Shown in pieces: positions 2,158 through 64,000 of a stretch of 64,000 bases of DNA. How positions within the stretch are numbered: position 1 is the first letter of the stretch; every line of letters starts with the position of its first letter. The DNA lies in assembly GCA_050258655.1 (NCBI GenBank), contig JBLMZF010000106.1, positions 2,669 through 66,668 of the forward strand, in the 5' to 3' direction. The DNA is from Deltaproteobacteria bacterium. Its GTDB lineage: Bacteria > Omnitrophota > Gorgyraeia > Gygaellales > Profunditerraquicolaceae. The notes beneath the pieces were generated by a model, which was given only the letters and a program-made list of their open reading frames with translations, did no database searches and was not told where the DNA came from. The position numbers and the translations under genes were made by a program.

Positions 2158-5108
<2,951 letters not shown>

Positions 5109-5162
5109 TACCAGTTACTCCCTTCTATCCCACCGTTCCCGCTTCGTAAGCGGGAAGGGTCA

Positions 5163-6270
5163 TTATTTCTGTTTCATCCATTTCAGATAGGCCTCTATGA
5201 AACCGTCTATCTCCCCGTCAAGCACCGCCTGCGTGTTACCGGTCTCATAATCGGTGCGGTTGTCCTTCACCATCTGGTAGGGCTGCAGCACGTACGAACG
5301 GATCTGTGAACCCCACTCGATCTTCTTCTTCTCCGTCCCGACGGTCTTCTGCAGCTCCTCTTCCTTCTTGCGCTGCTCGTATTCGTATATCTTCGCCTTG
5401 AGGATCTTGAGCACGTTCTGCCTGTTCTGGTACTGCGAGCGCTCGTTCTGGCTCGACACCACGATCCCCGTCGGCTTATGGGTCATCCTGACCGCCGTAT
5501 CCGTCTTCTGCATGTGCTGGCCGCCCGGACCGGAAGCCCTGTATGTCTCGATGACCAGGTCCTTCTCCTCGATCTTGATCTCGCCGGTCTCCTCGATCTC
5601 GGGAAAAATGTCGACTGAGGCGAACGAGGTATGGCGGCGCTTGTTGGCGTCGAACGGCGAGATGCGCACCAGGCGGTGGACGCCGCGCTCAGACTTAAGG
5701 TACCCGAACGCGTAGGGGCCTTCGATAAGGATTGTGACGTTCTTGATGCCGGCCTCTTCGCCGTACAGGATGTCTATGGTCTTGACCCCGAAGCCCCTGC
5801 GTTCGGCCCAGCGCGTGTAAAGGCGCAGGAGCATCGAAGCCCAGTCGCAGGATTCCGTGCCGCCCGCTCCGGAGTTAATGCTCAGGTACGCGGAGTTCGG
5901 GTCGAACGGACCGTCAAGCAGCGTCCTGGACTCGATCGCCTCGACTTCCCCGACCAGCGCCGCCGAACTGCGGTCGAGGTCGGCCACCATATCCGGCTCC
6001 CCCTCGCCGGTGATAGCGGCTATCTCTTTAAGTTCTTCAAAACGCTTGTGCGCCTGTTCCCACGGCTCGACGACTGTCTTGAGGGATTTCAATTCCTTGA
6101 CGGTCCTGGAAGAGGATGCTTCATCGTTCCAGAACTCGGGGCTGGACATGAGGCCGGAAAGCTCGGCTATCTTGTGCTTCTTGCCCTCGATGTCAAAGAT
6201 ACCCTCGTAGGTTGCGCAGGATCTGCTCGATCGAGGAAAGGCGGACGTTGACGTCTTCGAGTAACGGCAT
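5163..6270 (-). CDS. prfB: peptide chain release factor 2, with programmed +1 ribosomal frameshift near 6195
   Basis: The downstream frame has the RF2-specific SPF motif and GGQ (…RISPFDANKRRHTSFASVD…GPGGQHMQKTDTAVRMTHKPTG…). The N-terminus MPLLEDVNVRLSSIEQILRNLRGYL ends at an in-frame TGA within CGAGGG TAT CTT TGA C. That is the canonical SD-like plus CUU UGA C shift site. A +1 shift continues as DIEGKKHKIAELSGLMSSPEFWND…. Confidence 0.9.
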
Positions 6271-6284
6271 AGGTATCCTTGGGT

Positions 6285-7358
6285 TTAGCGTTTCTTTATG
6301 CCCTTGAGGGCGAGAGAGAACTCGTCGGGGTTGTCGGAGAAGCTGGTCGCCTCTTCCACGCTGACCTTGCCCGCCTTGACGAGCCTGACCAGCGACTGGT
6401 CGAAGGAGTGCATACCGAACACTTCCGAATCCTCTATGAACTTGTTCATCTCCCAGATCTTGTTCTCCCTGATCAGCCTGCTTATCGTCGGGGAAAGCAG
6501 CATGACCTCGGACGCCGGGACGCGTTCGCTGCCGTCCTGAGTCGGGATAAGCCGCAGCGAGATCACGCCCTTGAGCAGCTGCGAGAGCTGGGAGCATACC
6601 TGGTTATGCTGGTGCGGGGGGAAGAAATTTATCATTCGCTCCGCGGTCTGGCAGGCGTTGACCGTATGCAGGGTGCTCAGCACGAGCACTCCCGTCTCGG
6701 CGGCCGTCAAAGCGGCCTGCATCGTCTCCATGTCGCGGATGTTCCCTATATAGATCACGTCGGGGCTCTGGAGCGTGAACGAACGCAGGGCGGCGGAATA
6801 GGAAGAAACGTCCTTGCCCAGCTCCCTCTGGTTGATGATGCAGTTCTTGTCCTGGAACGTGAACTCGATCGGCTCCTCGAGGGTGAAGATGTGCCTGTTG
6901 GCGTTGACGTTGATGTACTCGATCATGCTGGCGATCGTCGTCGATTTCCCCGAGCCCATCGTGCCTGTCAGCAGGATTATGCCGCGCCGCTCCATCGCCA
7001 GCTTCTTGAGCGTCTCGGCAGGCAGGCCGAGCTCTTCCATGGTCTTGATGAACGTCGGGACGTTACGGATGACTATCGAGGGGTAGTTGCGCTGGGTAAA
7101 GATGCTGACGCGGAAACGGTGCTTGAGTTCCTGGCTGTAGTAGGCGAACTCGATGTCCAGGCTCTTCTTGAAGAACTCCCTGAGCTCCTCGGAAAGGAGG
7201 CGCTGAAGGGCGAAATCCATATCCGTCAGGTTGACGATGTCGTCCCCGAGCTTGACTATCTGGCCGTTAAGGCGCATGCGGACGGTGCCACCGACCCTGA
7301 AAAAAAGGTCGGACGCGTTCTTTTCGACCATCGTCCGAAGGCAATCGAGTATCTCCAA
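6285..7358 (-). CDS. pilT: type IV pilus retraction ATPase PilT/PilU family
   Basis: 357 aa. Walker A LLTGTMGSGKSTT; PilT-like Asp box and His box region (…IFTLEEPIEF…VIYIGNIRDMET…STLHTVNA…). Confidence 0.85.
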   Translation of the reverse strand: MEILDCLRTMVEKNASDLFFRVGGTVRMRLNGQIVKLGDDIVNLTDMDFALQRLLSEELREFFKKSLDIEFAYYSQELKHRFRVSIFTQRNYPSIVIRNVPTFIKTMEELGLPAETLKKLAMERRGIILLTGTMGSGKSTTIASMIEYINVNANRHIFTLEEPIEFTFQDKNCIINQRELGKDVSSYSAALRSFTLQSPDVIYIGNIRDMETMQAALTAAETGVLVLSTLHTVNACQTAERMINFFPPHQHNQVCSQLSQLLKGVISLRLIPTQDGSERVPASEVMLLSPTISRLIRENKIWEMNKFIEDSEVFGMHSFDQSLVRLVKAGKVSVEEATSFSDNPDEFSLALKGIKKR

Positions 7359-7407
7359 TCTTCCTCCGCTGTTTTTTCGTAACCGATTGTGCTAATTATT
7401 ATACCAC

Positions 7408-8898
7408 TCAGCGGCGCTTTTCCGTAGTAAAAAATTTCATGCCTTTCCCGAGGAAAAGGCGCGTCTGAGCGTCCAGGGCGGGGGTCGATCCGAGGATGAT
7501 GATGATGACGGGAGCGATGATCCATTCCATGGCTATCAGCACGTTCTTGAGCCAGCTGACACCCTTCGGCCGGGGAGGCAGGATGGTGCGGCTCAGGAGC
7601 ACCCAGACGATACTGGTGCAGAGCGTCAGGTTGAGCAGAAACCCTGTGATACGAGGGAGGTTAAAGCCGATCGGCATCTGCCGGAAGAAGACCCCTCCCA
7701 GGAAGATCGGGAGGGGCGCGATGAAGACGATGATGACCGCCCAGCAGGCCCAGGTGACGTGGCTTTCGAACAGGTGGAACGAACGGCGGACCTTGAGACC
7801 CGCGGGGACACCCTCCTCCCTCAGGAAACGGCGCACCACGTAAGGGAAGTTCTCCACGCCCCAGGCCCACCTGCGCTTCTGCTTGTACTGGAGTCCGATC
7901 GTGCTCAGGACATCCCTGCCGTAAGCGGCGTCCATGGAAACGGTCGTGTACAGCGGGATGACGCGGTACTCGCCCTTATAATGGAGGAACGCTTTCCAGT
8001 AGATGACCGAATCGTCCGAGATCATGTCCACCGGCCAGTAGTCTATATCCACAAGGGTCTTGAAACTCATGCTGTGGCTGGAAAAAGTGACGAACTTCTC
8101 CAGCCTCATGCTCTCTATCATCTGTGAGAACGACGAGGACATCTCCACCACGCGCGCGAACGAAGGCGCGGTCCAGATGTTGTTGTTGTAGACCGGGATG
8201 GGCTGGTAGCTGGCCTGGTGCGGGTGGGGGTTGGTCAGGAAATGGTACGCCAGGCACCCGAAATATTCCGGATGACAGCAGGTGTCCGCGTCGAAGCAGG
8301 AGACGATCACCGACTCCAGCGGTATCTTCCTGCCCTCGATGAACTCCTTCGCGCGCTTGCCCGCCCAGGTGGCGTTGGCTCCCTTCATGCGCTCCTCGCC
8401 GGGGAGCCCGTCCGGATGGAACGTGGTGATATACCCGAAGAAGTCATGCTTGAATTCCTTCTCGAGCACTTCGGCGGTCTGCCGGGAAGGCTTGTGGCGC
8501 TCCTCGAACGACACGACGGCGATGATCCTGTTGAGCGGGTAATGGCTTTCCTTGAGCGCCTGCAGCGAAGGACGCAGTATCTCAAGCCCCTCCTTGTACA
8601 CGGGGAACAGCACCAGCTGATAGACCCCGTCGAACCCCTTGTGGCGCTCGGCCATCCTGAGCCAGTTCCTGTCCTTCTCTTTCTGCAGCCTCCTGTGGGC
8701 CATCAGCAGGAGGATGGTCAGGTAAAGGGTCCTGATGATCCAGTAGAACTCGAAGATGATGATCAGCACCGCGCTGACCACCGGCCTGAACACGGCCAGC
8801 ACGATCAGGGCGATGATGAAGAACCACGAGACTCCGCCCGGCACCATCTCGAGGAAGCGGAACACCCTGTCTTTCTGCGTCTTGACCAGTTCGCTCAT
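7408..8898 (-). CDS. integral-membrane family 2 glycosyltransferase
   Basis: 496 aa with N- and C-terminal TM bundles flanking a GT-A domain carrying a DxD (VIVSCFDADTCCHPEYF). The start overlaps the PEGA gene stop (ATGA). Confidence 0.7.
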   Translation of the reverse strand: MSELVKTQKDRVFRFLEMVPGGVSWFFIIALIVLAVFRPVVSAVLIIIFEFYWIIRTLYLTILLLMAHRRLQKEKDRNWLRMAERHKGFDGVYQLVLFPVYKEGLEILRPSLQALKESHYPLNRIIAVVSFEERHKPSRQTAEVLEKEFKHDFFGYITTFHPDGLPGEERMKGANATWAGKRAKEFIEGRKIPLESVIVSCFDADTCCHPEYFGCLAYHFLTNPHPHQASYQPIPVYNNNIWTAPSFARVVEMSSSFSQMIESMRLEKFVTFSSHSMSFKTLVDIDYWPVDMISDDSVIYWKAFLHYKGEYRVIPLYTTVSMDAAYGRDVLSTIGLQYKQKRRWAWGVENFPYVVRRFLREEGVPAGLKVRRSFHLFESHVTWACWAVIIVFIAPLPIFLGGVFFRQMPIGFNLPRITGFLLNLTLCTSIVWVLLSRTILPPRPKGVSWLKNVLIAMEWIIAPVIIIILGSTPALDAQTRLFLGKGMKFFTTEKRR

Positions 8899-9758
8899 TT
8901 GTCCTTGTCGTCCCCGAAATTCTTGCGCATAAAGTCGCGGAAAAGGTAAAGTTTGCGGCCGAGCTCCAGCCTGTACACGTTCTCGTACGGCCTGTTGTCC
9001 GCGCCCGACTGCGAATCCTGGAAATAGAGGATATCCCCGTCGCTCTCGTAGAACAGTTTCCTTGGGTCGGAGTTGAGCTTCATCAGCACGAAAGGCTGGG
9101 CTCCCGGGCGCGTCTCGAGCATACAGATCTCCCTCCCCCTCAGGACGACGATATGGTAGTTGTCGGAATACCAGAAGACCTCTTTGATCGGCCCTGACAG
9201 CTGAAGGACGAACGAACTGTTCTGCGGTGCGCCCGGCTCGAGGTCGACTATCCCCACCATTTCATCATTGTAATAAAGCACGCTTTTGCGGTCAGGCGAG
9301 ACCTTCCACTCTTTCGCTCCCCCGGGCAGGGGGAAGAACTCCGCTATCTTCTCCGGGCGCTCGCCGGAGAAATCGGAGCGGTAGAGGCTGTTCGAGTCGG
9401 AAGCGACGTAATAGATCTGCCTGTCCTCGTCGATCCAGAACCAGGAGATCTGCTCGCGGTTGACCTTCTGTACGTCGGGACGCAGCGGGAAGAGCAGTAT
9501 CTTTTCCAGGCGCGCCACCGAGCTCGCTTTCACCTCGACATCCTGGCTGTACGGGTAATACCCGGACAGTCTCAGCTCGACCTTGTAGTTCCCGGGCAGA
9601 AGCTCAGTGATGCCGCACGGTGTCTTTTCGTTGAGCGGCGCTCCGTTCAGGAAGACCCCCGCCCCCGCGGGCTGGCTTTTCAAAGAGATAAGACCCGTAC
9701 GGGTAAAGGTCCAGGTCGCGCGGTTGAACTTGTAACCGAGCGTGTAGGTGAGGATCAT
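8895..9758 (-). CDS. PEGA-domain / beta-propeller-like membrane-anchored protein
   Basis: TM anchor AVLYYFSAAVFFTGLPMIL, then a PEGA-like beta-sandwich (LPGNYKVELRLSGYYPYSQDVEVKASSVARL), then a repetitive beta-rich region. The start is ambiguous (ATG 9758 or GTG 9830). The long ORF-track N-terminus overlaps the MGMT-like gene in another frame and is probably not translated. Confidence 0.5.
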   Translation of the reverse strand: MILTYTLGYKFNRATWTFTRTGLISLKSQPAGAGVFLNGAPLNEKTPCGITELLPGNYKVELRLSGYYPYSQDVEVKASSVARLEKILLFPLRPDVQKVNREQISWFWIDEDRQIYYVASDSNSLYRSDFSGERPEKIAEFFPLPGGAKEWKVSPDRKSVLYYNDEMVGIVDLEPGAPQNSSFVLQLSGPIKEVFWYSDNYHIVVLRGREICMLETRPGAQPFVLMKLNSDPRKLFYESDGDILYFQDSQSGADNRPYENVYRLELGRKLYLFRDFMRKNFGDDKDK

Positions 9759-9808
9759 CGGCAGCCCGGTGAAGAACACCGCCGCGCTGAAATAATAGAG
9801 GACCGCCC

Positions 9809-10087
9809 TTATCTTTTGTTCTCTGACCACAGCCTGATCTCTCTTTCCATGGCAAGAAGCCGTCTCTTCTTCGCGCTCCCGCCGGCGAAACCCCCGAGCG
9901 AGCCGTCGCTTTTGACCACGCGGTGGCAGGGGACGAGCGGCGCGTACGGGTTGCGGTTGAGCGCGTTGCCGACGGCGCGGCAGGCGCGCGGCCTGCCGAT
10001 CCTGGCGGCGACCCATTGATAGCTTCTGGTCTCGCCGACCGGTATCTCCATCACCGCCTTATATACCTTCTTCTCGAACTCCGTCAT
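9809..10087 (-). CDS. minimal methylated-DNA-protein-cysteine methyltransferase (MGMT/Ogt C-terminal DNA-binding domain only)
   Basis: 92 aa. MGMT HTH plus active-site PCHRV motif (…YQWVAARIGRPRACRAVGNALNRNPYAPLVPCHRVV…). It lacks the N-terminal domain of canonical Ogt. Confidence 0.75.
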   Translation of the reverse strand: MTEFEKKVYKAVMEIPVGETRSYQWVAARIGRPRACRAVGNALNRNPYAPLVPCHRVVKSDGSLGGFAGGSAKKRRLLAMEREIRLWSENKR

Positions 10088-10101
10088 CTCTCCACCTTTT
10101 C

Positions 10102-10137
10102 AACTTCGTAAGTTGAAAATTTTCAACTTACGAAGTT
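10102..10137. repeat. perfect 36-bp palindrome (aacttcgtaagttgaaaa|ttttcaacttacgaagtt) with a nested hairpin ttttcaact-tcgta-agttgaaaa starting at 10097
   Basis: Read directly in the 59-bp gap between the uvrC-like stop and the MGMT-like start. The sequence is related to the REP arms at 17260 and 17981 and to a half-copy at 20837-20863. Confidence 0.8.
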
Positions 10138-10145
10138 ACCGTGGT

Positions 10146-11399
10146 TTATTTCTCGCCTAAGACCTTCTTCCGGTGCAATAAATGGTGGTACACGCGGGCG
10201 AAGCGATGGGCTTCGTCCCGGACACGGCGGACCAGATTGAGCCCGGGAGTGTCCTCGCGGAAACTCACCGGCTCTTCCCTGCCCGGCACGTAGATGTTTT
10301 CCTGTTCCTTGGCCAGGGCGATCATCGGTATATCCAGCCCCAGCGCTCGTATCTCTCCCAGCGCCGCCTCGAGGTGCTGGCGGCCGCCGTCTATCAGTAT
10401 CAGGTCCGGCATCTGCCGGTTCTCCACCTTGAGCCTGTAGTATCTGCGCCGGACCACCTCTCGGATCATCGCGTAGTCGTCGATCCTGTCCACGGTCTTG
10501 ATCCGGAACCGGCGGTAATTGTCCTTATCAGGGGAACCCTTCAGGAAGCTCACCATCGACCCGGTCGCTTCCTTACCGGAGATATTGGCGATGTCGAAGG
10601 CCTCGATGCGTATCGGAGGGCGGTCCATGCCGGCGATCTTGCGCAGCTCCTCGATACCATTGAGGTTCAGGAACTCATTGCCCCTGCTGACCGCGCTCAA
10701 CGCATGTATCTGGTCGCGGATCTTGGCGGCGTCCTCGAACCGCCGTTCCTTCGCGGCGAGGTTCATCTTCTCCGAAAGCCGGAAGGCCAGTTCATCATAC
10801 CGCGAATCGAGTACCAGCTGGATATCCTTGATTATCTCAGCGTATCGCTGTTTGGTCAACTTCCCTTTGCAGGGGCCGGGGCACAGCTTCAGCCGGAAAT
10901 AAAGGCACGGCTGCCTTGGCATCACGTTGCAGGAACGGAAACCGAAGATGCGGCGGATGACCTTGAGAGCCTGCCGCAGGAGATTGGCGCTGGTGTACGG
11001 CCCGTAATAGGTCGACCCGTCCTTCGTGTGGAGCTCGCCCTTCTGCTTCCGGCACACCATCACGACAGGGAAATCGTCGCCGGTGATGCGTATCATCGGG
11101 AAGGACTTGTCGTCCTTGAGGCTGATGTTGTACCTGGGCTGCTTTTCCTTGATCAGCGACGCTTCCCACAGCTGGGCCTGGAACTCTGTAGGTGAAAGGA
11201 TATACTCGAGGTCCTCGACCTGCGAGACCATCGCCTGGGTCTTCGAATTGAGGAATCTGCCGAAGTAGGAGGAAACCCGCTTCTTCAGGGACTTCGCCTT
11301 GCCGATATATATGATCTCCCCCTTCGCGTTCTTGAAAAGGTATACTCCGGGAGAATCCGGGAGAGCCTTGACCTTGTCTTTTACTTTTCCTGTGCTCAT
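10146..11399 (-). CDS. uvrC: excinuclease ABC subunit C homolog, short form (GIY-YIG plus UvrC endonuclease domains, no C-terminal HhH)
   Basis: N-terminal GIY-YIG (GVYLFKNAKGEIIYIGKAKSLKKRVSSYF). Central UVR-like region. RNase-H-like domain (RIEAFDIANISGKEATGSMVSF). Ends about 150 aa short of canonical UvrC. Probable start is MSTGKV at 11399. Confidence 0.8.
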   Translation of the reverse strand: MSTGKVKDKVKALPDSPGVYLFKNAKGEIIYIGKAKSLKKRVSSYFGRFLNSKTQAMVSQVEDLEYILSPTEFQAQLWEASLIKEKQPRYNISLKDDKSFPMIRITGDDFPVVMVCRKQKGELHTKDGSTYYGPYTSANLLRQALKVIRRIFGFRSCNVMPRQPCLYFRLKLCPGPCKGKLTKQRYAEIIKDIQLVLDSRYDELAFRLSEKMNLAAKERRFEDAAKIRDQIHALSAVSRGNEFLNLNGIEELRKIAGMDRPPIRIEAFDIANISGKEATGSMVSFLKGSPDKDNYRRFRIKTVDRIDDYAMIREVVRRRYYRLKVENRQMPDLILIDGGRQHLEAALGEIRALGLDIPMIALAKEQENIYVPGREEPVSFREDTPGLNLVRRVRDEAHRFARVYHHLLHRKKVLGEK

Positions 11400-11404
11400 G
11401 ATCC

Positions 11405-13012
11405 TTATATCTCTTCTGGGACGGCGGTCTTTCTGGCCATCCATTCCCATATCCTGGCTACCGGCCCCACGCGCAGAGCGATACAGAACACCGCGTAGGA
11501 GGCCGCTCCCGCGCAGACCGGCACGATGATGCTCAGGGCACGTCCGGAGATCCCCGGCCCGAAGCCGCGCCCCAGCGCGAGCAGGCAGACGGCTCCCATC
11601 CCGGCGCTGGCAGCGATGACCTTGGTGATATACTCGGCCATGCCTGCCAGGTCGACGCCTCCTATCCTGCTCTTGAGGGCCTGGAGCGATACCGCGAAGG
11701 TGACGATGCCTGAGATCGATGTCGCCAGAGCGAGTCCCCCGATCTTAAGCGGGTATATCAGCAGCGCGTTGAAGACGATGTTGAGCACCAGCGTCAGGAC
11801 CGAGATCTTCGTCGGAGTAACCGTATCCTTGATCGCGAAAAAGGCGCAGTTGACGACCTTGGTGGCGCCGTAGGCGAAGAGCCCGATGCTGTAGAAAAAG
11901 AGCGCGCTGGCGGTCATATCGACCGCGTAGGCATCGAACTTCCCTCCCCTGAACAAAGCGGAGATCATCGGCTTCGAGAGCACCATGAAGGCGACCGAAG
12001 CCGGTATCATCACGAACAGCACCGACCTCAGCCCGAACCCTACTGTCTTGCGCAGCTTCGACCTGTCCTCTTCGATCGCCTGTGTGGACATGACCGGCAG
12101 GATCGCCTGCGAAAGCGAGTTGCTGAAGATGCCCAGCGGGAACTGGATCAGGCGGTACGAGAAATAGAGCGCGGCGACACCGCCGGTACCGACGATGAAG
12201 ACCAGCGAACCGAAGATCGTGTCCACGAAATTGTTGAGCTGGTAGATCGCGGTGCTGAACAGGCGCGGGGTCAACAGGCGCAAGATGCGTTTCAGGTCGG
12301 GATGGCCGAACCCCTTGAGCGAAAAACGGAACCGGTACCCTTTGGAATACAGCACCGGCACCTGGACGGCCAGCTGAAGCACGCCGCCGATCAGCACGCC
12401 CGAGGCAAGGCCCTTTATGCCTTCTCCCCAGACCAGGGCGCAGACGATGATCGCGATGTTAAGCAGGCAGGGGGCGAACGCGGGCACCGCGAAATGGCGC
12501 AGAGAGTTCAGCACGCCCATGAAGTAAGCGGTCAGCCCGATCAGCAGGATGTACGGGAAGATGAGCCGGTTGAGCTTTACCGTGGTCAGGAACTGCTGGG
12601 CGTCCGCGCTGAAACCGGGGGCGACCAGGCGCACCAGGACCGGCGAGAGCAGTATGCCCAGAAGCGTGATGGCCGACAGCACGACCAGGATAAAGTTCAT
12701 CCCGGCGTTGACCAGCTCCCAGAATTCCTCTTTCCGGCCCCGGCCCGTATACTCGCTGAATACGGGGACGAACGCGGCGTTCGAGGCCCCTTCCCCGATC
12801 ATGTCCCTGAAAAGGTTGGGGATCTTGAAGGCGATAACGAACGCCTGGGCGTAGACATAGACGCCGAAAAGCCGGGCGATGACTATGTCCCTGACGAAGC
12901 CCAGCAGGCGCGAGCAGAGGGTCGCAAGGCCGATCACTCCCGCCGACTTTGCCACCTGCCTGTGCCCGCCGCCCCCCTGCCGGGGGACGTTGCCGGATTT
13001 ATCTATTGACAT
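11405..13012 (-). CDS. murJ: lipid II flippase MurJ (MviN)
   Basis: 535 aa polytopic protein. N-terminal signature LGFVRDIVIARLFGVYVYAQAFVIAFKIPNLFRDMIGEGASNAAFVPVFSEY. Confidence 0.9.
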   Translation of the reverse strand: MSIDKSGNVPRQGGGGHRQVAKSAGVIGLATLCSRLLGFVRDIVIARLFGVYVYAQAFVIAFKIPNLFRDMIGEGASNAAFVPVFSEYTGRGRKEEFWELVNAGMNFILVVLSAITLLGILLSPVLVRLVAPGFSADAQQFLTTVKLNRLIFPYILLIGLTAYFMGVLNSLRHFAVPAFAPCLLNIAIIVCALVWGEGIKGLASGVLIGGVLQLAVQVPVLYSKGYRFRFSLKGFGHPDLKRILRLLTPRLFSTAIYQLNNFVDTIFGSLVFIVGTGGVAALYFSYRLIQFPLGIFSNSLSQAILPVMSTQAIEEDRSKLRKTVGFGLRSVLFVMIPASVAFMVLSKPMISALFRGGKFDAYAVDMTASALFFYSIGLFAYGATKVVNCAFFAIKDTVTPTKISVLTLVLNIVFNALLIYPLKIGGLALATSISGIVTFAVSLQALKSRIGGVDLAGMAEYITKVIAASAGMGAVCLLALGRGFGPGISGRALSIIVPVCAGAASYAVFCIALRVGPVARIWEWMARKTAVPEEI

Positions 13013-15499: not shown

Positions 15500-16891
15500 T
15501 CAACGGGCGGGAAGGGAAAAAAACCCGAGCCGAAAGCTTGCCAGATGGACAAGGACGGCGGTGGAATGATCGACGGTGACAGCGATGAGGCCGGCGCAGG
15601 CAGGCAGGGCCAGCTCGGCCAGCAGGAGACAGAAACCGCAGAGCGTGATGAAGCCGGCAAGCGGCACTACCAGCAGGTTCGTAAGTATTGCTCCAGGGGT
15701 AAAAATACGGAAATAATAGGCGATGAGACCGGAGGTCATCAGCCACGCCGAGAAGGAAACGAGCAGACCGTCCGCGATATACCGGAAAAGGCCGGCAAGA
15801 CGCTCTATCCCCAGTCCTGTCTTCAAATGAGGATAGACGACGATCAATCCGAACACGCTGACGTAGGAGAGCTGAAACCCTGCGTCGAACAAAAGACGCG
15901 GGTTTATCATCAGCATCACGCACAGCGACAGGGCGAAGGCGTTCTGTATATCCCCTTCCCTGTGAAAGAGATATGCGCCTGATAGAATGACTGCCATTAT
16001 CCCCGCCCGCACAACGGGCTCGGAAGCGCCGGTCAGCAGACAATAGGCGAAGATCCCCGGGACCAGGAAGAAAAAACGCAGGCGCCGGGGCACGCGCAAA
16101 AGGCGCAGAAGGATAAGCAGCACGAAAACCACAATGCCGACATTGAACCCGCTGACCACCAGGATATGGATCGTACCCGTCTCGATCATCGCTCTCGTGA
16201 TGAGCGGAGAGACATCATCCTTCTCGCCGAGAAGCATCGCCTGCATCATGGCCGCGCACTGAGGCGAGAGCCGGTCACTCAGGGTCAGCGACAGACGATG
16301 ACGGAGCTTAAGCAGCAGGGATCCGATCCGGCCGCTGTCTTTTTTGACGAGCTCGATCGACCAGGGACGGCATTCGAGGATTCGGGAAATGCCGTGACGT
16401 TCCAGGTGATCGGAGTAATTCCTCATCATGAACGGAAAAGCCGCTCGGCAGGAGATAAACTCTCCCGAGGAAAGGAGCTGGTCACCGCAGGAATAAGGAA
16501 CGTCGGCCTTGACGATGAGCAGAAGCTTACCGTGCGCCGGGCTCGCCTTCCTGCCAGCGGATATCTGGTCAACGTCGAGCAGCATCCGCGTCGAGCCGCG
16601 AACCCGTTCTGGTTCGCCTGCCACCGTCCCCAGTACCGTTATATGTGCCGGCCAGGGGCGGTCGGAGACCGCGGAGACGGAGCGGACCTGACAAGCCGAA
16701 GCCCAGCAGCAGCCTACGGAAAATGAAAGAAGCGGTAAAAGCGCCGCCGGGAAGGAACGGCCGCGGAGTAGCCAGGAGGCCGCTGAAAGCGCCGAGGCGC
16801 AGAAAAAGAGAACGACGAACGGAAGCCGGACATAAAACGCGAAACCGATCCCGGCGCAGAAAAATCCGGACAGGATAAGCAGCGGGCTCAT
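15500..16891 (-). CDS. comEC: ComEC/Rec2 DNA internalization channel (membrane domain only, no metallo-beta-lactamase domain)
   Basis: 463 aa polytopic. DUF4131-like N-terminus plus the ComEC competence domain (…HILVVSGFNVGIVVFVLL…GLIAYYF…). Confidence 0.8.
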   Translation of the reverse strand: MSPLLILSGFFCAGIGFAFYVRLPFVVLFFCASALSAASWLLRGRSFPAALLPLLSFSVGCCWASACQVRSVSAVSDRPWPAHITVLGTVAGEPERVRGSTRMLLDVDQISAGRKASPAHGKLLLIVKADVPYSCGDQLLSSGEFISCRAAFPFMMRNYSDHLERHGISRILECRPWSIELVKKDSGRIGSLLLKLRHRLSLTLSDRLSPQCAAMMQAMLLGEKDDVSPLITRAMIETGTIHILVVSGFNVGIVVFVLLILLRLLRVPRRLRFFFLVPGIFAYCLLTGASEPVVRAGIMAVILSGAYLFHREGDIQNAFALSLCVMLMINPRLLFDAGFQLSYVSVFGLIVVYPHLKTGLGIERLAGLFRYIADGLLVSFSAWLMTSGLIAYYFRIFTPGAILTNLLVVPLAGFITLCGFCLLLAELALPACAGLIAVTVDHSTAVLVHLASFRLGFFSLPAR

Positions 16892-16900
16892 ATCCTCGTC

Positions 16901-17227
16901 TTACCTGACGCAGACCCAATCTCTGACCCTGCCCACCAGCGATGACCGCATACCTTTGACTTTCGAAAGCTCGGCGACATCCGAGAACCCGTTGTTGTCC
17001 TCGCGATATTGGATGATCCTGCGCGCCAGTCCGTCCCCGATACCCGGGAGGCTTTTGAGAGCCTCCGTATCCGCTTTGTTCAGGTCGATCCTTCCCAGGT
17101 CGCGGAGGAATTCGCGCCTTTCCAGCGGCGGGATCATTTTCGCCGCGCACTCGATCGCCGCCCCCGCGCCGCTTACCGCCAGCAAAAACACCACCACCTG
17201 CCTCTCCTGCTTCGTCAGCTCAAGCAT
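16901..17227 (-). CDS. comEA: competence protein ComEA (HhH DNA-binding)
   Basis: TM anchor plus C-terminal helix-hairpin-helix pair: IDLNKADTEALKSLPGIGDGLARRIIQYREDNNGFSDVAELSKVKGM. Start taken at MLELTKQ (17227). The longer ORF-track start would run through the REP hairpin. Confidence 0.8.
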   Translation of the reverse strand: MLELTKQERQVVVFLLAVSGAGAAIECAAKMIPPLERREFLRDLGRIDLNKADTEALKSLPGIGDGLARRIIQYREDNNGFSDVAELSKVKGMRSSLVGRVRDWVCVR

Positions 17228-17256
17228 ATCGCCTCCCTTCCCCACCGCTTCGCGGT

Positions 17257-17285
17257 GCGCTTGCGTAGGTTCCAACCTACGCAAG
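17257..17285. repeat. REP-like hairpin, left copy (gcg-cttgcgtaggtt-cc-aacctacgcaag)
   Basis: 12-bp perfect stem with a 2-nt loop. Exact reverse complement of the right copy at 17978-18006, so the two are in inverted orientation flanking the RAYT gene. Confidence 0.85.
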
Positions 17286-17287
17286 TA

Positions 17288-17908
17288 TTATGGTTCTATA
17301 ACTAGATGTTTAATGGTTGCGAGTTCTCGTTGATAATCTATGCGCGAATTGACAAAATCAGCATATTTTTCTGAAGCAATATCGATAAACTCTTTAAATT
17401 CGCAGATTCCCGATTCTTCTCCCAGATATTCTTTAAACGAAGAATACTTCCACTCTTCAGGAGCATTAACCAGATAGGCCGTTACCGGATTAAGGTGGAT
17501 ATATCTGGTTAGATGAAGTAAATACTCCTCATTTTCAATCAGTTTTCTCTTAAACCTTCCTTCCCAAAGAGGACCTTTGCGCTTGACTCTCGCATTGAAA
17601 TAATGCGTGTAACCATTTAACACTTTGTTCATATAAAGTGAGATGCCATTCTCTTGCAATTGCTTTAATATTAGATGAATGTGCGTGCTCATCAGACAAA
17701 AAGCTATTATCTGCACAAGAGCGGATCGCGGTTGGCGGATCGGAGAAGTAATTGAATTTCTCGTTTTTGCATTAGGATCTTTGTAGAATTGGAGGGCCTC
17801 AAGCATTCGAATGTAATCTCTTTCTGAATTAAAGATTACATAGTCAGAAATGCTTTTGCTGTAAACATGATAGATACTACCTTCGACTAAGGGATCGTTC
17901 GCCATCAC
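17288..17908 (-). CDS. REP-associated tyrosine transposase (RAYT; IS200/IS605-like TnpA, Y1 HUH family)
   Basis: 206 aa. YHVYSKSISDYVIFNS beta-strand region, HUH motif HIHLIL, and a C-terminal Tyr-containing helix (RYIHLNPVTAYLV). The gene and its flanks are visibly AT-richer than their surroundings. Flanked by inverted REPs. Confidence 0.8.
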   Translation of the reverse strand: MMANDPLVEGSIYHVYSKSISDYVIFNSERDYIRMLEALQFYKDPNAKTRNSITSPIRQPRSALVQIIAFCLMSTHIHLILKQLQENGISLYMNKVLNGYTHYFNARVKRKGPLWEGRFKRKLIENEEYLLHLTRYIHLNPVTAYLVNAPEEWKYSSFKEYLGEESGICEFKEFIDIASEKYADFVNSRIDYQRELATIKHLVIEP

Positions 17909-17977
17909 CTAAATAGACAGCGAAAAATAGGAAGTCTAACAGCTTTTTTTAAGGATTTGGGGTTGAATTGGCTTATT

Positions 17978-18006
17978 GCGCTTGCGTAGGTTGGAACCTA
18001 CGCAAG
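17978..18006. repeat. REP-like hairpin, right copy (gcg-cttgcgtaggtt-gg-aacctacgcaag)
   Basis: Inverted partner of 17257-17285. Lies 16 nt downstream of the leuS stop. Confidence 0.85.
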
Positions 18007-18021
18007 CGGCGAAGCGGGGAA

Positions 18022-20439
18022 TTAGACGACGATGGTGACGAGTTTGCCGGGGATGACGATGAATTTCCTGATCTCTTTGCCGTCGAGCCAGGGCTTGGCT
18101 TTTTCGTCAGAAAGAACGGCGGCGCGGATCTCGGGCTCGCCCGCGGCCGCGGGGACTTCCACGCGCGAGCGGACTTTGCCGTTGATCTGGATCACGTAGG
18201 TGATAACGTTCTCGACCAGCATCGCCGGGTCATACTTCGGCCACGGCGCTTTGGCGATGTCGCCCTTATGGCAGGTCATCTCCCAGAGCTCCTCGCACAT
18301 GTGCGGCGTGATCGGCGAAAGCAGCTGAACGAGCGTCGATAAGATCTCGCGGTCAGCCCCGTACTGGTAGATGGCGTTGACGAACTCCATCATCGAGGCG
18401 ATGGCGGTGTTGAACTTGAAGTTCTCCAGGTCGTCGGTGACCTTCTTGACGGTCTTGTGCATCACCTTGAGCAGTGCCGGGTCGGACTTCTCTTTAAGGT
18501 TGTCCTGGATCCTCCAGACGCGGTTGAGGAACTTGAACGCGCCCTCGATACCGCGGTCATCCCACTCGAGCTCTGTCTCGGGCGGAGCGGCGAAGAGGAT
18601 GAACAGCCTCATGCTGTCGGCGCCGTATTTATCGATGATGGAATCGGGGTCGACGATGTTGCCCTTTGATTTAGACATGACCTCGCCGTCCTTGAGCACC
18701 ATGCCCTGCGTCAGCAGGCGCTTGAACGGCTCGTCGAAATCGACCATACCGAGGTCTTTGAAGAACTTGGTGAAGAAGCGCGAATAGAGAAGATGGAGGA
18801 TCGCGTGCTCGATGCCGCCGATATACTGATCGACCGGCATCCAGTACTTCGCTTCCTGCATGTCAAAAGGAGCCTGCGCGTCTTTCGGCGAACAATACCT
18901 GAGAAAATACCAGGAAGAGTCGAAGAACGTGGCCATGGTATCGGTCTCGCGCCGCGCCTTGCCGCCGCACTTCGGGCACTTCGTCTCGACGAATTCCTTG
19001 ACCTTGCCTAACGGGCTTCCGCCCTCTCCGGTGAAAGGCGCGTCCGCCGGCAGCTTGACCGGCAGTTCCTTGTACGGCACCGGCACGACCCCGCATTGAG
19101 GGCAGTAGACCATCGGGATGGGCGTGCCCCAGTATCTCTGACGGGAAATCAGCCAGTCGCGCAGGCGCCAATGGGTCTGGATCTTCCCGATCCCGGTCTT
19201 CTCCATCCACTCGGCGATCGCGGCCTTGGCCTTGACGTTGGGCATGCCGTCGAACTGCTTCGAATTCACCTCTTCGCCCTCGCCCTCGAACGCCTCGGTC
19301 ATCTCCGCCGCATCGAGCTTCGCGCCCTCAGGCTGGATGACCACGCGCATCGGCAGGCCGTGCTCTTTGGCGAACAGGAAATCACGCTGGTCATGGGTCG
19401 GGACGGCCATGATCGCCCCGGTCCCGTACTCCATCAGCACGTAATCGGCGGTCCAGATCGGCACCTCTTCCCCATTGACCGGGTTGACGGCATGCGCCCC
19501 GGTAAAAATACCTTCCTTCTTCACTCCTCCGGCACGGTCGACCTTGCTCTCTTCCGAGACGCGCTGGATGAAATCGGACACTTCCCTCTCGCGCGGCGTG
19601 CCTTTGACCAGCTCGGCGACAAGCGGATGCTCGGGAGCGAGAACGACATAGGTAGCTCCAAAGATAGTGTCCGGCCTGGTGGTAAATACCGGAATAACGC
19701 GGTCCGTACCCTTGAGCTTGAAATATATCTCCACACCCTGGCTCTTGCCGATCCAGTTGGTCTGCATCGCCACGACCCTCTCCGGCCACTGCGAAAGCTG
19801 GGAGAGATCATCCAGGAGGCGTTCCTTGTAATCAGTGATCTTCAGGTACCACTGCTCGAGCTCCTTCTGCTCGACCTGCGCGTGGCAGCGCCAGCAGCCG
19901 CCCTCGATGACCTCTTCATTGGCCAGCGTAGTCTGGCACGACGGGCACCAGTTGACCGACGATCCCTTCTTGTAGGCGAGACCGCGCTCGTACATCTTGA
20001 GGAATATCCACTGGTTCCAGGCGTAATAATCGGCGTCGCAGGTCGACACCTCGCGGTCCCAGTCGTAGGAGAAACCCATCTTCCTGAGCTCGACCTCCAT
20101 GTCGCGGATGCATTTATGTGTCCAGGCGTCAGGCTTGGTCTTGTTCTTGATCGCGGCGTTCTCGGCGGGCTGGCCGAACGCGTCGAAGCCCATCGGGTGC
20201 AAGACCTCGAAACCGCGGTTCCATTTATAGCGGCTGTAGACGTCGCCGATGGTGTAGTTGCGCACATGGCCCATGTGGATCTTGCCCGACGGGTACGGGA
20301 ACATCTCCAGGCAGTAGAACTTAGGGCGGGGGCCCACACCGGCACCTCCACTTGTGCCGGGTGGGACGGCCCTGAACGTTCCAAATTTCTGCCAGTGCGC
20401 ACGCCACTTCTCTTCTATCCGTTTGAAATCGTATTCCAT
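18022..20439 (-). CDS. leuS: leucine--tRNA ligase
   Basis: 805 aa. HIGH-type motif ([15 protein letters not shown]) and KMSKS (VMSKSKGN). CP1 editing domain present. Confidence 0.97.
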
Positions 20440-31334: not shown

Positions 31335-31486
31335 ATGGATTCCTTTCCTGCATAATTATAGCGATGCGAGTAATAAAAAGCAAGATTTTTCCAAAAAAGC
31401 GTTAGATTCGAATTTCCCGCCTGTCTATTATAGGTAAGGAACGGTTTGCACACGTGTGCATGTTCCGAACGGCAAAAGGAGCTCTT

Positions 31487-61236: not shown

Positions 61237-64000
61237 TTACTGCAGGGCGGCGGTCTCGAGGCCCAGAACGACCTTCAGGGTCTCGATAATGTCTTTGGAA
61301 GAACGGGTGCCGTTCTCCTCTTCCAGCCTGAGGATATAGGCGATGCGGGTCCTGGCCCGGGCTATTGCGGCAGGGGCAGCGGGTACATGCTCACGGCAGT
61401 CGCCCAGGTAGCCCTTGACACTATCTTCGCTGGGCATCATCCCCGCGACAAGCATATTGTCGAACCGGAAGTCGACGCCGCCGGCGGCGTCCTCCCCTCC
61501 GTCCTTCGCGAGCTTCGGGCTCAATCTCGTGTAGTCCTGATGCACAACCGCGTAACCGCCTGCGGCTTCCATCTTCGCCAGGAACTTCTCCCACGGCATC
61601 TTGTAAAGCGCGACCAGGAGCCCGAAGCCGGGTCTCTGAGGGTCGATGGCCTGCTCGCCCGGGTCTTTACCGGTCGTCCGCTCGATATGCTTCCGGTACG
61701 CCTGCTGTCTAAACAGCATTGCCTTGGGGGTCGCCCGGGACTTGCCCGAATCACGCATCATCTCGACTAACTCCCGGCTGTCGGTCTTATTCACTACCTC
61801 CTTGAACTGCTCTTCTGGAATCGAATCTATGACCAGCGACCAGTCAGTCGGTTCATATATATGACCGTAGTCCAGAATGATCACTTTCTTCAGCATTCCC
61901 AGTTCCGGTTTATTCTGATAAGCCTGAGTGACATGGGCAAGTAACAGAGGATTATTATAGACTGCGTACTTGATGCTGCGGGCGAGCTGATATTCCGCAT
62001 CTGAGCCTATAGCGCTTATCCACGAGACGATAAGATCATCCAATTCAGAAAAGCCGATCCTAATGCTATTAGAGGATTCAAGCGAATCGGCTAAAGCTTC
62101 GGCAAGATCATCCTTAACAGGAATCTTGTTTGTCTCTTTTATGCCTGAAATAACCTGCCCGTACAGAGCAGGATTACCACTGATGGCATACTTCAGAATA
62201 TTGGTCGTTGTCAAACCATTAAAGGCATGGACAAGTATATCCATTTCTTCAGGAGTGACCTTAATGTGCAGGTATCCGTTGCTTGCATAACGAAGGAGAA
62301 CTTCGATAGCCTCTGTAAGCGCAGTTATAACAGCTTCGTTCCTGGTTTCTTTTAAAGCCGTGACCATCAATTTATACACTTCCTCGTTATTCTTGACGGC
62401 ATCGATCGCATTGATAAAGACCCACTGTAGATTTCCCCAGGCAAACTCGCCTTTCGCAGCGTCAAGCGCGGCAATAAGAGTATGCAGATCGTCGGAAGAC
62501 AACCTTAGATCATACTTTTTCCCGCGGGCGGCCTTGAAAGCGTCGATTAAGACTTCGGCCAGCACGTCACGGACACTGTCCTCTGTCGTTACTTTCAAAG
62601 CGGCGATGACCTGGCCGTACAATTCCGGGCTGTTAAGCAGCATGTTATTAATATCCTCTTTTAACTGCCGCGGAATCCCGTACCGAGATACCCGTCTGAG
62701 CGCTTCTAATTTTTCTTTTAATGACTGTTCTTCCCCACCGTCCTTAGCGGCCCACGCGCTCAATCTTGTAGGCTCCTTGTGCACGACTTCATATCCTCCC
62801 GAGGCCTCCATCTTCGCCAGAAACTTCTCCCAGGGCATTTTGTAGAGCGCGACAAGGAGGGAAAATCCTTCTTTCTTTGGATCGATGGGCTGTTCTCCGG
62901 GATCCTCGCCGCCAGCCCGCTTGATCGACTCCCTGTACGCGATCTGTTTCATGGCCATGGCCTTGCTTGTCACCTGGCCATTGTCTACGGCAAAGAACAT
63001 ATCCCTGTAACCATCTTCATCTCCCTTAATAAGGGCATGAAGAGCATCCGAGGGGATCGACGACAGGACGAGCGACCAGTCTGTCCGGCTGTTAATGCCA
63101 AGATATTCGTGCGGATAGAGGCCGTTTTGTCTGCATCTTTCAAATGCCGAGCCGAACAAAGGCTGCAAGCGGGGCCATTCACGTTTGCCCAAAGAGCTCC
63201 TTACAGCGGATACCAGGGTGAGATCATTCCACAAGGCTTCCTGGATACTCTCTTCGAAACGATCGATAGCCCATTTAGAATCCGTTACTCCTTGCGGTAT
63301 AGTAAAGAGCGCGTCAATGAGGGCGCCGAATTCCTCCTGGGCCAAAACGATCGGCCGCCCGTCTTCTCTGGAAAACTTCAGGGAAGTGACTAATGTCCTC
63401 GCGAACATCCCCCGCCAGGTAACGGTCCCGGCACCCTTGATCTCGGCAAAGAAACGTCCCATCATCTGCGGATTCTTCCTGAGCGCTCCCTCGACGCACA
63501 TTTCATAATCCCAGAGCTCTTCGTCATGCCTTTCGTAGGCGCTCCTCATAAGCGCGATATAGAAATCGAACTCTTCCGGCGTCCCCCTGAGGATCCGCGT
63601 GGCGCGGGACGTCCTCAACGCATAACCGAGAGCATACACAAGCGCGCGCGATTCTTCTTCTCCGGCGACCCGCAAGGCCGCGACGACCTGTTTATACAAG
63701 GCCGGGTTTACATGGAGAGTGTAGGTGATTTCCTGTTTAAGATGGTACTTTTCTTCTTTTGAAGAAGCCAGCTTGAGCGCCTCGATCTTCCCTGCGAGAT
63801 AAGACGTATTGTAGATATCCTTCTTCGACCTTCTCCCGCCGTCCTTCGCGATCTTCGGGCTCAGCCTTGTGTAATCAGCGTGTACCGCCGCGTATCCGCC
63901 ACAGGCTTCTATCTTCGCCAGGAACTTCTCCCACGGCATCTTGTAGAGCGCGACCAGGAGCGAGAAACCGGGTTTCTGCGGGTCGATAGGCTGCTCGCCG
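61237..64000 (-). CDS. giant modular repeat protein of unknown function (C-terminal >900 aa in window; ORF continues beyond window end)
   Basis: No stop reading 5' of 63939 to the window edge. Contains at least 3 to 4 tandem modules of about 400 aa, with near-identical junctions GFxLLVALYKMPWEKFLAKMEAxGGYxVVHxDYTRLSPKxAKDGGE and divergent cores. No signal peptide or TM seen in the part present. Unique C-terminal tail of about 90 aa. Confidence 0.7.
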   Translation of the reverse strand, partial: GEQPIDPQKPGFSLLVALYKMPWEKFLAKIEACGGYAAVHADYTRLSPKIAKDGGRRSKKDIYNTSYLAGKIEALKLASSKEEKYHLKQEITYTLHVNPALYKQVVAALRVAGEEESRALVYALGYALRTSRATRILRGTPEEFDFYIALMRSAYERHDEELWDYEMCVEGALRKNPQMMGRFFAEIKGAGTVTWRGMFARTLVTSLKFSREDGRPIVLAQEEFGALIDALFTIPQGVTDSKWAIDRFEESIQEALWNDLTLVSAVRSSLGKREWPRLQPLFGSAFERCRQNGLYPHEYLGINSRTDWSLVLSSIPSDALHALIKGDEDGYRDMFFAVDNGQVTSKAMAMKQIAYRESIKRAGGEDPGEQPIDPKKEGFSLLVALYKMPWEKFLAKMEASGGYEVVHKEPTRLSAWAAKDGGEEQSLKEKLEALRRVSRYGIPRQLKEDINNMLLNSPELYGQVIAALKVTTEDSVRDVLAEVLIDAFKAARGKKYDLRLSSDDLHTLIAALDAAKGEFAWGNLQWVFINAIDAVKNNEEVYKLMVTALKETRNEAVITALTEAIEVLLRYASNGYLHIKVTPEEMDILVHAFNGLTTTNILKYAISGNPALYGQVISGIKETNKIPVKDDLAEALADSLESSNSIRIGFSELDDLIVSWISAIGSDAEYQLARSIKYAVYNNPLLLAHVTQAYQNKPELGMLKKVIILDYGHIYEPTDWSLVIDSIPEEQFKEVVNKTDSRELVEMMRDSGKSRATPKAMLFRQQAYRKHIERTTGKDPGEQAIDPQRPGFGLLVALYKMPWEKFLAKMEAAGGYAVVHQDYTRLSPKLAKDGGEDAAGGVDFRFDNMLVAGMMPSEDSVKGYLGDCREHVPAAPAAIARARTRIAYILRLEEENGTRSSKDIIETLKVVLGLETAALQ
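61500..61700. repeat. conserved module-junction repeat copy (intragenic, about 1.2 kb period)
   Basis: cgccaggaacttctcccacggcatcttgtaaagcgcgaccaggagcccgaagccgggtctctgagggtcgatggcctgctcgcccgg at 61573 onward matches the copies near 62813 and 63916 at about 80-90 percent nucleotide identity. Confidence 0.8.
62740..62960. repeat. conserved module-junction repeat copy (intragenic)
   Basis: cgccagaaacttctcccagggcattttgtagagcgcgacaaggag… is homologous to the 61573 and 63916 copies. Confidence 0.8.
63830..64000. repeat. conserved module-junction repeat copy (intragenic, truncated by window end)
   Basis: cgccaggaacttctcccacggcatcttgtagagcgcgaccaggagcgagaaaccgggtttctgcgggtcgataggctgctcgcc is nearly identical to the copy at 61573. 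Confidence 0.8.

Follow-up and report, generated by a model that had tools for sequence, protein, structure and literature searches.

The window, i.e., the whole 64-kb stretch of contig JBLMZF010000106.1 that was analysed (64,000 nt), harbours a compact unit in which a single gene for a protein of the REP-associated tyrosine transposase (RAYT; REP, repetitive extragenic palindrome) kind lies between two copies of one palindrome. The unit occupies the spacer between leuS and comEA; leuS, the RAYT-like open reading frame (ORF), comEA and comEC are all on the minus strand. The locus comprises the following features, in window coordinates (GC3 is the GC fraction at third codon positions):

15500-16891, minus strand: comEC, the next gene after comEA.
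16901..17227, minus strand: comEA, corrected to 108 aa, with ATG at 17227 and a Shine-Dalgarno sequence GGAGG at about 17232-17236 (GGGAGG).
17243..17257, minus strand: intact mini-hairpin CACCGC-GAA-GCGGTG, with the motif GCGAAGC, outside the downstream palindrome.
17260..17285: gene-distal (downstream) palindrome, CTTGCGTAGGTT-CC-AACCTACGCAAG, with a 12-bp stem and the loop CC on the plus strand.
17286..17980: AT-rich patch between the palindromes; the ORF has a GC3 of 0.36, its neighbouring genes one of 0.70-0.82.
17288..17908, minus strand: RAYT-like (class-2 TnpA-Y1) ORF of 206 aa from GTG 17908, with the stop codon TAA at 17288-17290.
17910..17943, minus strand: promoter-like motif of host type, i.e., an A-tract, GTTAGA (17935-17940), 17 nt and TCTATT (17912-17917).
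17979..18008: gene-proximal (upstream) palindrome with the core CTTGCGTAGGTT-GG-AACCTACGCAAG at 17981-18006, the loop being GG on the plus strand.
18007..18019, plus strand: CGGCGAAGCGGGG, a degenerate counterpart of the mini-hairpin in inverted orientation, outside the upstream palindrome.
18022..20439, minus strand: leuS, the upstream co-directional neighbour and host marker.

The first-pass annotation of this DNA had described two 26-bp hairpins, at 17260-17285 and 17981-18006, as exact reverse complements of each other; this holds even over 28 nt (17258-17285 and 17981-18008), and the gcg that it had seen before each hairpin is part of a TGCG preceding both palindromes on the plus strand. 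The stem of the upstream palindrome reaches 14 bp through a CG/CG extension. The gene-distal copy starts 2 nt past the RAYT stop codon, in the RAYT-comEA intercistronic region, and the upstream copy sits between the leuS stop codon (18022) and the promoter-like motif, some 70-100 nt before the RAYT start codon. These two are the sole copies in the window at up to three mismatches, and none of 100 shuffles of the window matched them. Folded as single-stranded DNA, 51-nt segments containing the palindromes gave -16.3 to -20.3 kcal/mol (z between -5.6 and -7.2 against shuffles). An Rfam scan of 16800-18400 matched no family. The mini-hairpin at 17243-17257 lies immediately 5′ of the comEA Shine-Dalgarno sequence and is part of the minimum-free-energy fold; its copy at 18007-18019 matches the segment 17240-17259 in inverted orientation, with two indels. 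The inverted repeat thus runs further outward, with indels, because both palindromes have the GCGAAGC mini-hairpin motif on their outer side.

The ORF is intact and of full length. Started at ATG 17905, it yields 205 aa, which corresponds to the length of the deposited protein and to the homologous family start. It contains YHVY, STHIHLIL and HLTRYIHLNP, with H76-I-H78 as the HuH motif, W115-E116 as the W motif and Y136 in YIHLNP as the catalytic Tyr. The profile for Y1 transposases (Pfam PF01797, Y1_Tnp) matches residues 65-138 with 29.2 bits, above its gathering threshold of 23; the sole NCBIfam match, the E. coli-type RAYT equivalog NF047646 (REP_Tyr_transpos), scores 61.9 bits (E 5.9e-17) and stays below its cutoff of 80. 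The sole match by sequence in PDB is 4ER8, E. coli TnpA-REP bound to a REP hairpin, where STHIHL aligns on PEHMHC (HMH) and YIHLNPV on YIYINPV. For an AlphaFold model of the protein (pLDDT 87.6), 4ER8 is also the top match in a Foldseek search of PDB (4er8_A, E 6.3e-8, TM 0.75 on the target); the transposases of IS608, ISDra2 and IS200 rank behind it, those of IS608 and ISDra2 as significant matches. Profiles, the 4ER8 match and motif alignment together confirm the HUH/Y1 class that had been assigned to the ORF at first sight, and we predict from sequence and model that it encodes a Y1 HUH enzyme of the RAYT/TnpA-REP class.

Residue conservation was scored over 26 homologues with 51-62% identity to the window protein. 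Y13, H14, H76, H78, Y136, H138, N140, P141, S156 and S157 are invariant, as are C-terminal residues including C169, Y182, F185 and Q193, and W115 and E116 are kept in at least 90% of the sequences; no loss of the HUH or Tyr residues, which would have spoken against a RAYT, is therefore seen. Class-2 (TnpA-REP-like) enzymes are marked by Y-x-x-x-N-P, IS200 transposases by Y[IV]ENQ (PMC6006769), and the ORF combines HuH with a single Tyr in Y136-I-H-L-N140-P141. Its combination of WE, YIHLNP and SS comes nearest to subclasses 2.1 and 2.2 of that classification (PMC6006769); the HuH context T-H-I-H exactly fits neither. Pfam detects no helix-turn-helix (HTH) or DnaA_C-like domain in the C-terminal part. 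The family is large and well conserved, counting 2,382 proteins at E ≤0.001, many of them from Omnitrophota and Patescibacteria.

These properties bear on one alternative, by which the unit is an autonomous IS200-like insertion sequence (IS) that has recently transposed into the leuS-comEA spacer. IS200 is about 0.75 kb in size. The window unit likewise measures about 0.75 kb, is AT-rich relative to its host, carries a hairpin near each end, shares the fold of the IS200/IS605 TnpA proteins (IS608, ISDra2) and would by analogy share their chemistry on single-stranded hairpins. On the other hand, its Tyr motif is YIHLNP (Y..NP, not Y...Q), 4ER8 is the better match by sequence as well as by fold, and the two palindromes are inverted relative to each other. 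Subclass 1.1 of IS200/IS605 is characterised by Y[IV]ENQ, a high copy number, copies about 99% identical and frequent pairing with tnpB (PMC6006769), a description to which the unit does not conform: tblastn finds one copy of the gene in the 64 kb, the end sequence occurs nowhere else in the public collections searched, and no tnpB adjoins the ORF in the window.

To place the palindromes in a wider frame, we fetched 80 metagenomic loci (designated by L and a number) encoding homologues, analysed 78 and compared 200 nt on each side of the gene. In 67 of these 78 loci, the two flanks share a hairpin, with exact matches of 13-45 nt against a shuffled-control maximum of 9-13 nt; the hairpins are typically found 20-100 nt upstream of the start codon and 0-40 nt downstream of the stop codon. 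Their sequence varies from locus to locus and tracks the protein lineage: the proteins of L099 and L102 are 83% identical and have the hairpin core CACCGCGTAGGT in common, and the distant protein of L004 goes with a different hairpin, ACACCTCCGAGGTGT. A recurrent design can be discerned, with (A/C)ACC at the top of the stem, a short loop and GGT(G/T); the loop is often, in a recurrent subset of loci, [T/G]CGTA or the complement of this, and elsewhere it is, e.g., TCCGA or GTC. Since a lineage-specific hairpin flanks the gene on both sides in 67 of 78 loci, the palindromes appear to be the cognate sites of the enzyme. Locus L102 carries CACCGCGTAGGTT-gac-AACCTACGCGGTG, which links the small family unit to the palindrome of the window; judged from its sequence, the latter would be a collapsed inverted doublet of the family unit ((A/C)ACC, loop GCGTA, GGT(G/T)), and the conserved GCGTAGG motif would therefore fall inside the stem.

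The same survey speaks to the possibility that the palindromes are ordinary terminators or mRNA-stabilising stem-loops of leuS and the ORF, and the ORF itself a stray or decaying transposase gene. Both hairpins do stand at the 3′ ends of co-directional genes, a terminator scan flags 17259-17286 (albeit on the plus, non-coding strand), and two further Omnitrophota genomes carry similar GCGTAGGTT..AACCTACGC hairpins at the 3′ ends of genes, with no RAYT nearby. Yet no T-tract follows either hairpin on the transcribed (minus) strand, the copies are identical over 28 nt, unmatched by any shuffle, the same lineage-specific hairpin recurs on both sides of the gene throughout most of the family, and the ORF is of full length with all its invariant residues. 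We regard this explanation as very improbable.

A RAYT together with its cognate flanking palindromes constitutes a REPtron (PMC3733652, PMC6006769, PMC5581495), and in the window, cognate copies are found on both sides of the gene. The reading that we prefer, at a probability of roughly 70%, is that of a REPtron-like unit, i.e., an intact, single-copy gene for a class-2 Y1 HUH nuclease/transferase bracketed by two cognate palindromes. Seen in this way, the unit is a rather ordinary representative of a known kind. The E. coli REPtron (TnpA-REP/RAYT yafM, PDB 4ER8; subclass 2.2, Bertels Group 2) provides the best match to the window protein by sequence and fold; both have the HuH, W, Y-x-x-x-N-P and SS tail motifs, and in both a single chromosomal gene among housekeeping genes is accompanied by cognate palindromes in inverted arrangement. 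Unlike E. coli TnpA-REP, to which it is 18% identical in structural alignment, the window protein has about 40 additional aa and a C-terminal tail that is conserved (C169, Y182, F185, Q193). The palindromes differ too: E. coli REPs are imperfect hairpins with an unpaired 5′ GTAG, whereas the window palindrome has a perfect stem of 12-14 bp within which GTAG (17265-17268) and CTAC are buried, the bases 5′ of the foot being TGCG. E. coli, moreover, has a dispersed REP population, and none was found in the 64 kb of the window.

The protein also resembles subclass 2.1, or TIRYT (Bertels Group 1), in W[EQ], Y[IV]HLNP and SS and in exceeding 200 aa with a C-terminal extension, and the unit resembles it in low copy number and in flanking repeats that are few or not abundant. 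The unit could accordingly be read as a TIRtron, in which a TIRYT-type Y1 gene is flanked by self-complementary terminal inverted repeats (TIRs) instead of true REPs. WE, Y[IV]HLNP, the SS tail and a length of 205-230 aa are indeed closest to subclass 2.1 (Table 1 in PMC6006769), some TIRs are described as self-complementary and of low copy number, and the perfect 28-nt inverted pair reaches CCCC/GGGG outer ends that recall the TIR motif GGGGWSAS, which is suggestive only. What makes the TIRtron rather unlikely is that the HuH context is T-H-I-H and not NH[VYF]H (T, in place of the N of subclass 2.1, precedes HuH), and that subclass 2.1 is reported to be without REP-like hairpins and often to have HTH or DnaA_C-like tails. 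In the window protein, by contrast, no such domain was detected by Pfam; across its family, short hairpins, often direct, and not long TIRs, are the rule in the flanks, and some members have dispersed hairpin populations.

A parallel for the palindromes themselves is offered by subclass 2.4. Atypical and "double-foot" REPs are on record, and the double-foot REPs of subclass 2.4, each end of which bears GT[AG]G or its complement, have been explained by a central deletion in an inverted REP dimer (PMC6006769). The window palindrome is similarly long and reads as a collapsed inverted doublet; GTAG, however, is internal to its stem and at the feet of the subclass 2.4 REPs. The protein belongs to another subclass, given that subclass 2.4 is distinguished by NH[IFV]H, WQ, YIxNNP and REPs inserted within the gene.

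By homology with E. coli TnpA-REP and IS608 TnpA, the palindromes of the REPtron-like unit would be bound as hairpins extruded on single-stranded DNA. On the same analogy, H76 and H78 would hold the metal ion, and Y136 would form the 5′-phosphotyrosine link.

The gene may be expressed from a promoter of host type. The promoter-like motif (A-tract...GTTAGAtTt-N14-GTCTATT) is invariant 5′ of the RAYT gene in six lineages and also upstream of comEA in L105, a relative in which the site is empty. GTTAGA-N17-TCTATT occurs again in the window at 31401-31429 (plus strand), ahead of an unrelated gene, and the motif is found upstream of several genes in the Omnitrophota-like loci L032, L035, L074, L093 and L096. 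A scan for the sigma-70 consensus called no coding-strand promoter, the motif departing from TTGACA/TATAAT; it is likely to be the common host promoter type of this lineage. As occupied and empty sites have it in common, the ORF and the downstream palindrome lie between the promoter and the ribosome-binding site of comEA, and the RAYT gene is for that reason probably the first cistron of a RAYT-comEA-comEC transcript. Within that transcript, the intercistronic hairpin, which is not followed by a T-tract, could modulate downstream expression. The end of the -10-like TATTTA is 4 nt from ATG 17905, pointing to an mRNA with no leader or a very short one; in relatives, the leader measures 15-25 nt and contains a Shine-Dalgarno sequence. 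The RAYT mRNA of the window may thus be leaderless.

Regarding the neighbours, the longer comEA ORF, starting at TTG 17284, passes through the left palindrome, as had been pointed out at first reading. The orthologues are 107-111 aa long and begin with M-x-x-x-T-x-Q-E-R, for which reason we place the comEA start at ATG 17227. NCBI labels the source metagenome-assembled genome (MAG) as Deltaproteobacteria bacterium (MGE5308739/MGE5308740). This label is probably wrong, because every named source organism among the best LeuS hits (73-84% identical) belongs to Omnitrophota. At 46 other loci of the family, the downstream neighbours are varied housekeeping genes, e.g., for RecA, topoisomerase, GTP cyclohydrolase and XerC-like integrases. 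The association with comEA is consequently specific to the clade of the window, and a functional linkage of the whole family to comEA was rejected on the same grounds.

Within that clade, the slot is conserved. The best protein hits (54-64% identity) all sit in a leuS-(flavodoxin)-RAYT-comEA-comEC arrangement, namely on the contig of P0003, the closest relative (64%), as judged from its gene table, and at L004/L020, L019, L099, L102 and L103. Comparison of the orthologous leuS-comEA regions shows the slot filled in at least seven related Omnitrophota-like lineages. It is empty in L105, whose LeuS is 74-75% identical and where leuS and comEA are 85 nt apart without a cassette, which implies that the unit is an insertion.

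The occupant of the slot does not seem to have simply been passed down with the host. Synonymous sites could be used for the triad L004/L099/L102 only, other pairs being saturated in the host genes, with the following results:

L004 and L099, comEC: protein 81%, four-fold sites 78% (n = 230).
L004 and L099, comEA: protein 89%, four-fold sites 82% (n = 44).
L004 and L099, RAYT: protein 56%, four-fold sites 26% (n = 31), against a composition-only baseline estimated at about 27%.
L099 and L102, comEC: protein 75%, four-fold sites 62% (n = 184).
L099 and L102, comEA: protein 82%, four-fold sites 75% (n = 40).
L099 and L102, RAYT: protein 83%, four-fold sites 55% (n = 49).

The RAYT genes of L004 and L099 are thus saturated at four-fold sites and have different hairpins despite their close hosts, and homology between the two loci picks up again at the comEA ribosome-binding site. 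The pair L099 and L102 is congruent, the RAYT gene being as conserved as the host genes. The host tree, ((L004, L099), L102), conflicts with the cassette tree, ((L099, L102), L004), which suggests that the occupant was replaced in situ at least once by a deeply diverged cassette with different hairpins. The idea of a "domesticated" system, in the sense of purely vertical descent, is then too simple: the slot is conserved, yet a close pair of hosts has anciently diverged cassettes.

The spacer has seen other changes as well. A flavodoxin/FMN-reductase gene that overlaps the leuS stop codon lies between leuS and the RAYT slot in L004 (9267-9872) and L104 (6400-6999), and is absent from the window, from the contig of P0003 and from L103. 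As the insert is present in some relatives only, the spacer downstream of leuS appears to be a site of recurrent gene gain and loss. In L019 (9960-10000 and 10650-10690) and L103 (6545-6570 and 7262-7290), the RAYT ribosome-binding region resembles that of comEA: the match is REP+CAAAGGGGAGgtaATG with REP+CAAAGGGGGAatgaATG in the former and AAAAGGAGGGaCTATG with AAAAGGAGGG-CTATG in the latter. This short direct repeat on either side of the inserted ORF may be a scar of the insertion or no more than a likeness between purine-rich Shine-Dalgarno sequences.

For the IS200-like alternative, the empty site in a relative is a further point in favour. The slot, however, is filled in at least seven diverged lineages, every locus of the family carries one gene, no locus of 20 kb or less having two, and the host-type promoter lies within the unit, after the upstream palindrome and ahead of the ORF. 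With the wrong Tyr motif, a single copy in the 64 kb and a conserved chromosomal slot, the unit is not an IS200, and we hold its recent transposition as an autonomous element to be quite unlikely.

The roughly 0.7-kb AT-rich patch that had been noticed around the gene is borne out: its GC content is 36-44%, against about 60% in the flanks and 59% over the window, and it includes the lowest-GC 600-nt stretch of the entire window (38%). Across the family, the RAYT gene has a lower GC3 than the adjacent genes in 33 of 37 loci (median difference -0.09), and nowhere is the gap as wide as in the window (0.36 against about 0.76). The strong AT bias fits a horizontally exchanged cassette that has not ameliorated. 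Taken further, one may conceive of a site-bound exchangeable cassette, made up of the ORF and its cognate hairpins in the comEA-comEC leader, driven by the host promoter and exchanged in situ for deeply diverged versions that come from related genomes. Its logic would be integron-like, operated by the Y1 HUH enzyme and possibly acting on incoming single-stranded transformation DNA, with AT-richness as the signature of continual exchange. We put this forward as a speculation to which we give rather little credence.

Several observations weigh against the REPtron-like reading or its extensions. The arrangement had been called a "textbook" REP-RAYT-REP one; the gene does lie between cognate palindromes, but these lack the unpaired 5′ GT[AG]G foot of canonical REPs, GTAG being in the stem, and the protein misses the RAYT equivalog cutoff. 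The flanking copies across the family are direct in 38 loci and inverted in 29; neither the canonical inverted REPtron nor the layout of IS200 alone accounts for such a mixture. That the gene is co-transcribed with comEA and that its product acts as a nuclease are things that we only infer. The low GC3 could be maintained by selection for AT-rich codons instead, and the inferred replacement involves one informative genome triad, whose RAYT genes offer only 31-49 four-fold sites. Above all, there is the matter of repetition. The window has no third palindrome at the tolerance given above, and searches in it for diverged or half-site copies (CACCGCGWAGSGGTG, GCGTAGGTT) and for direct-repeat families without bias returned only the two flanking copies. 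The 18-base core GCGTAGGTTNNAACCTACGC gave 11 single hits in unrelated taxa among 185,579 species genomes (the source genome not among them), which is about chance level by our own estimate, and the exact 26-mer has no match in the JGI metagenomes. As neither the window nor these collections yielded dispersed copies, the "repetitive" property of REPs is not established for the source genome, and the proposal that the system probably seeds dispersed REPs finds no support here. E. coli has about 590 REPs in 4.6 Mb, so that about eight copies would be expected per 64 kb; a window of this length is too short to exclude a modest genome-wide population.

Elsewhere in the family, dispersal does occur. 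Copies of the flanking hairpin more than 400 nt from the gene are seen in only four of the 22 loci of at least 12 kb. The best example is L075, in which 12 mostly intergenic copies with conserved extended flanks occur in 20 kb; this REP-like family, at 3900-11800, has the form CCCCAAAAACCA-TACACC-[TCGTA/TACGA/TCCGA]-GGTGTA-AGTAAACTGATA, and the same hairpin flanks the RAYT homologue of L075. The protein family is, in other words, REP-competent.

Two further observations concern such palindromes in related genomes. Two independent assemblies, those of L099 (1-35) and L102 (1-30), end exactly within the cluster of REPs that precedes the RAYT gene, as would be expected if the REPs were repeated elsewhere in the genome or if the cassette were polymorphic in the population. 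Two of the 11 hits to the 18-base core fall in different Omnitrophota MAGs, where single ACTGCGTAGGTTnnAACCTACGCAGT palindromes stand just past the 3′ end of a gene (L013, 7558-7587; L017, 2625-2654), and the roughly 2 kb examined around each contain no RAYT-like ORF of 80 aa or more; they may be orphan relatives of the window palindrome or convergent terminator-like hairpins.

To our knowledge, almost all work on RAYT/REP systems concerns Proteobacteria and Cyanobacteria. A limited search of open-access texts, which is a weak negative, found no paper joining RAYTs with Omnitrophota or Patescibacteria. The main interest of the present unit lies in a seemingly exchangeable cassette in a fixed slot of a competence operon leader, together with the family-wide AT bias. 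Occupied, empty and swapped-cassette sites in one conserved slot amount to a clean natural experiment, the history of which bears on whether RAYTs are strictly vertically inherited, and the pairs of protein and hairpin across the family form a ready-made set for the study of recognition specificity. For annotation, the ORF is best entered as a putative RAYT-like nuclease and not as an active IS, comEA as starting at 17227, and the MAG as Omnitrophota-like and not deltaproteobacterial.

Finally, at 61490-63999 of the window, there are three copies of a 165-249-nt segment, 70-84% identical and set at intervals of about 1.1-1.2 kb. They coincide with the second-lowest-GC stretch (0.44-0.48 around 61700-62200) and look like tandem paralogous genes.

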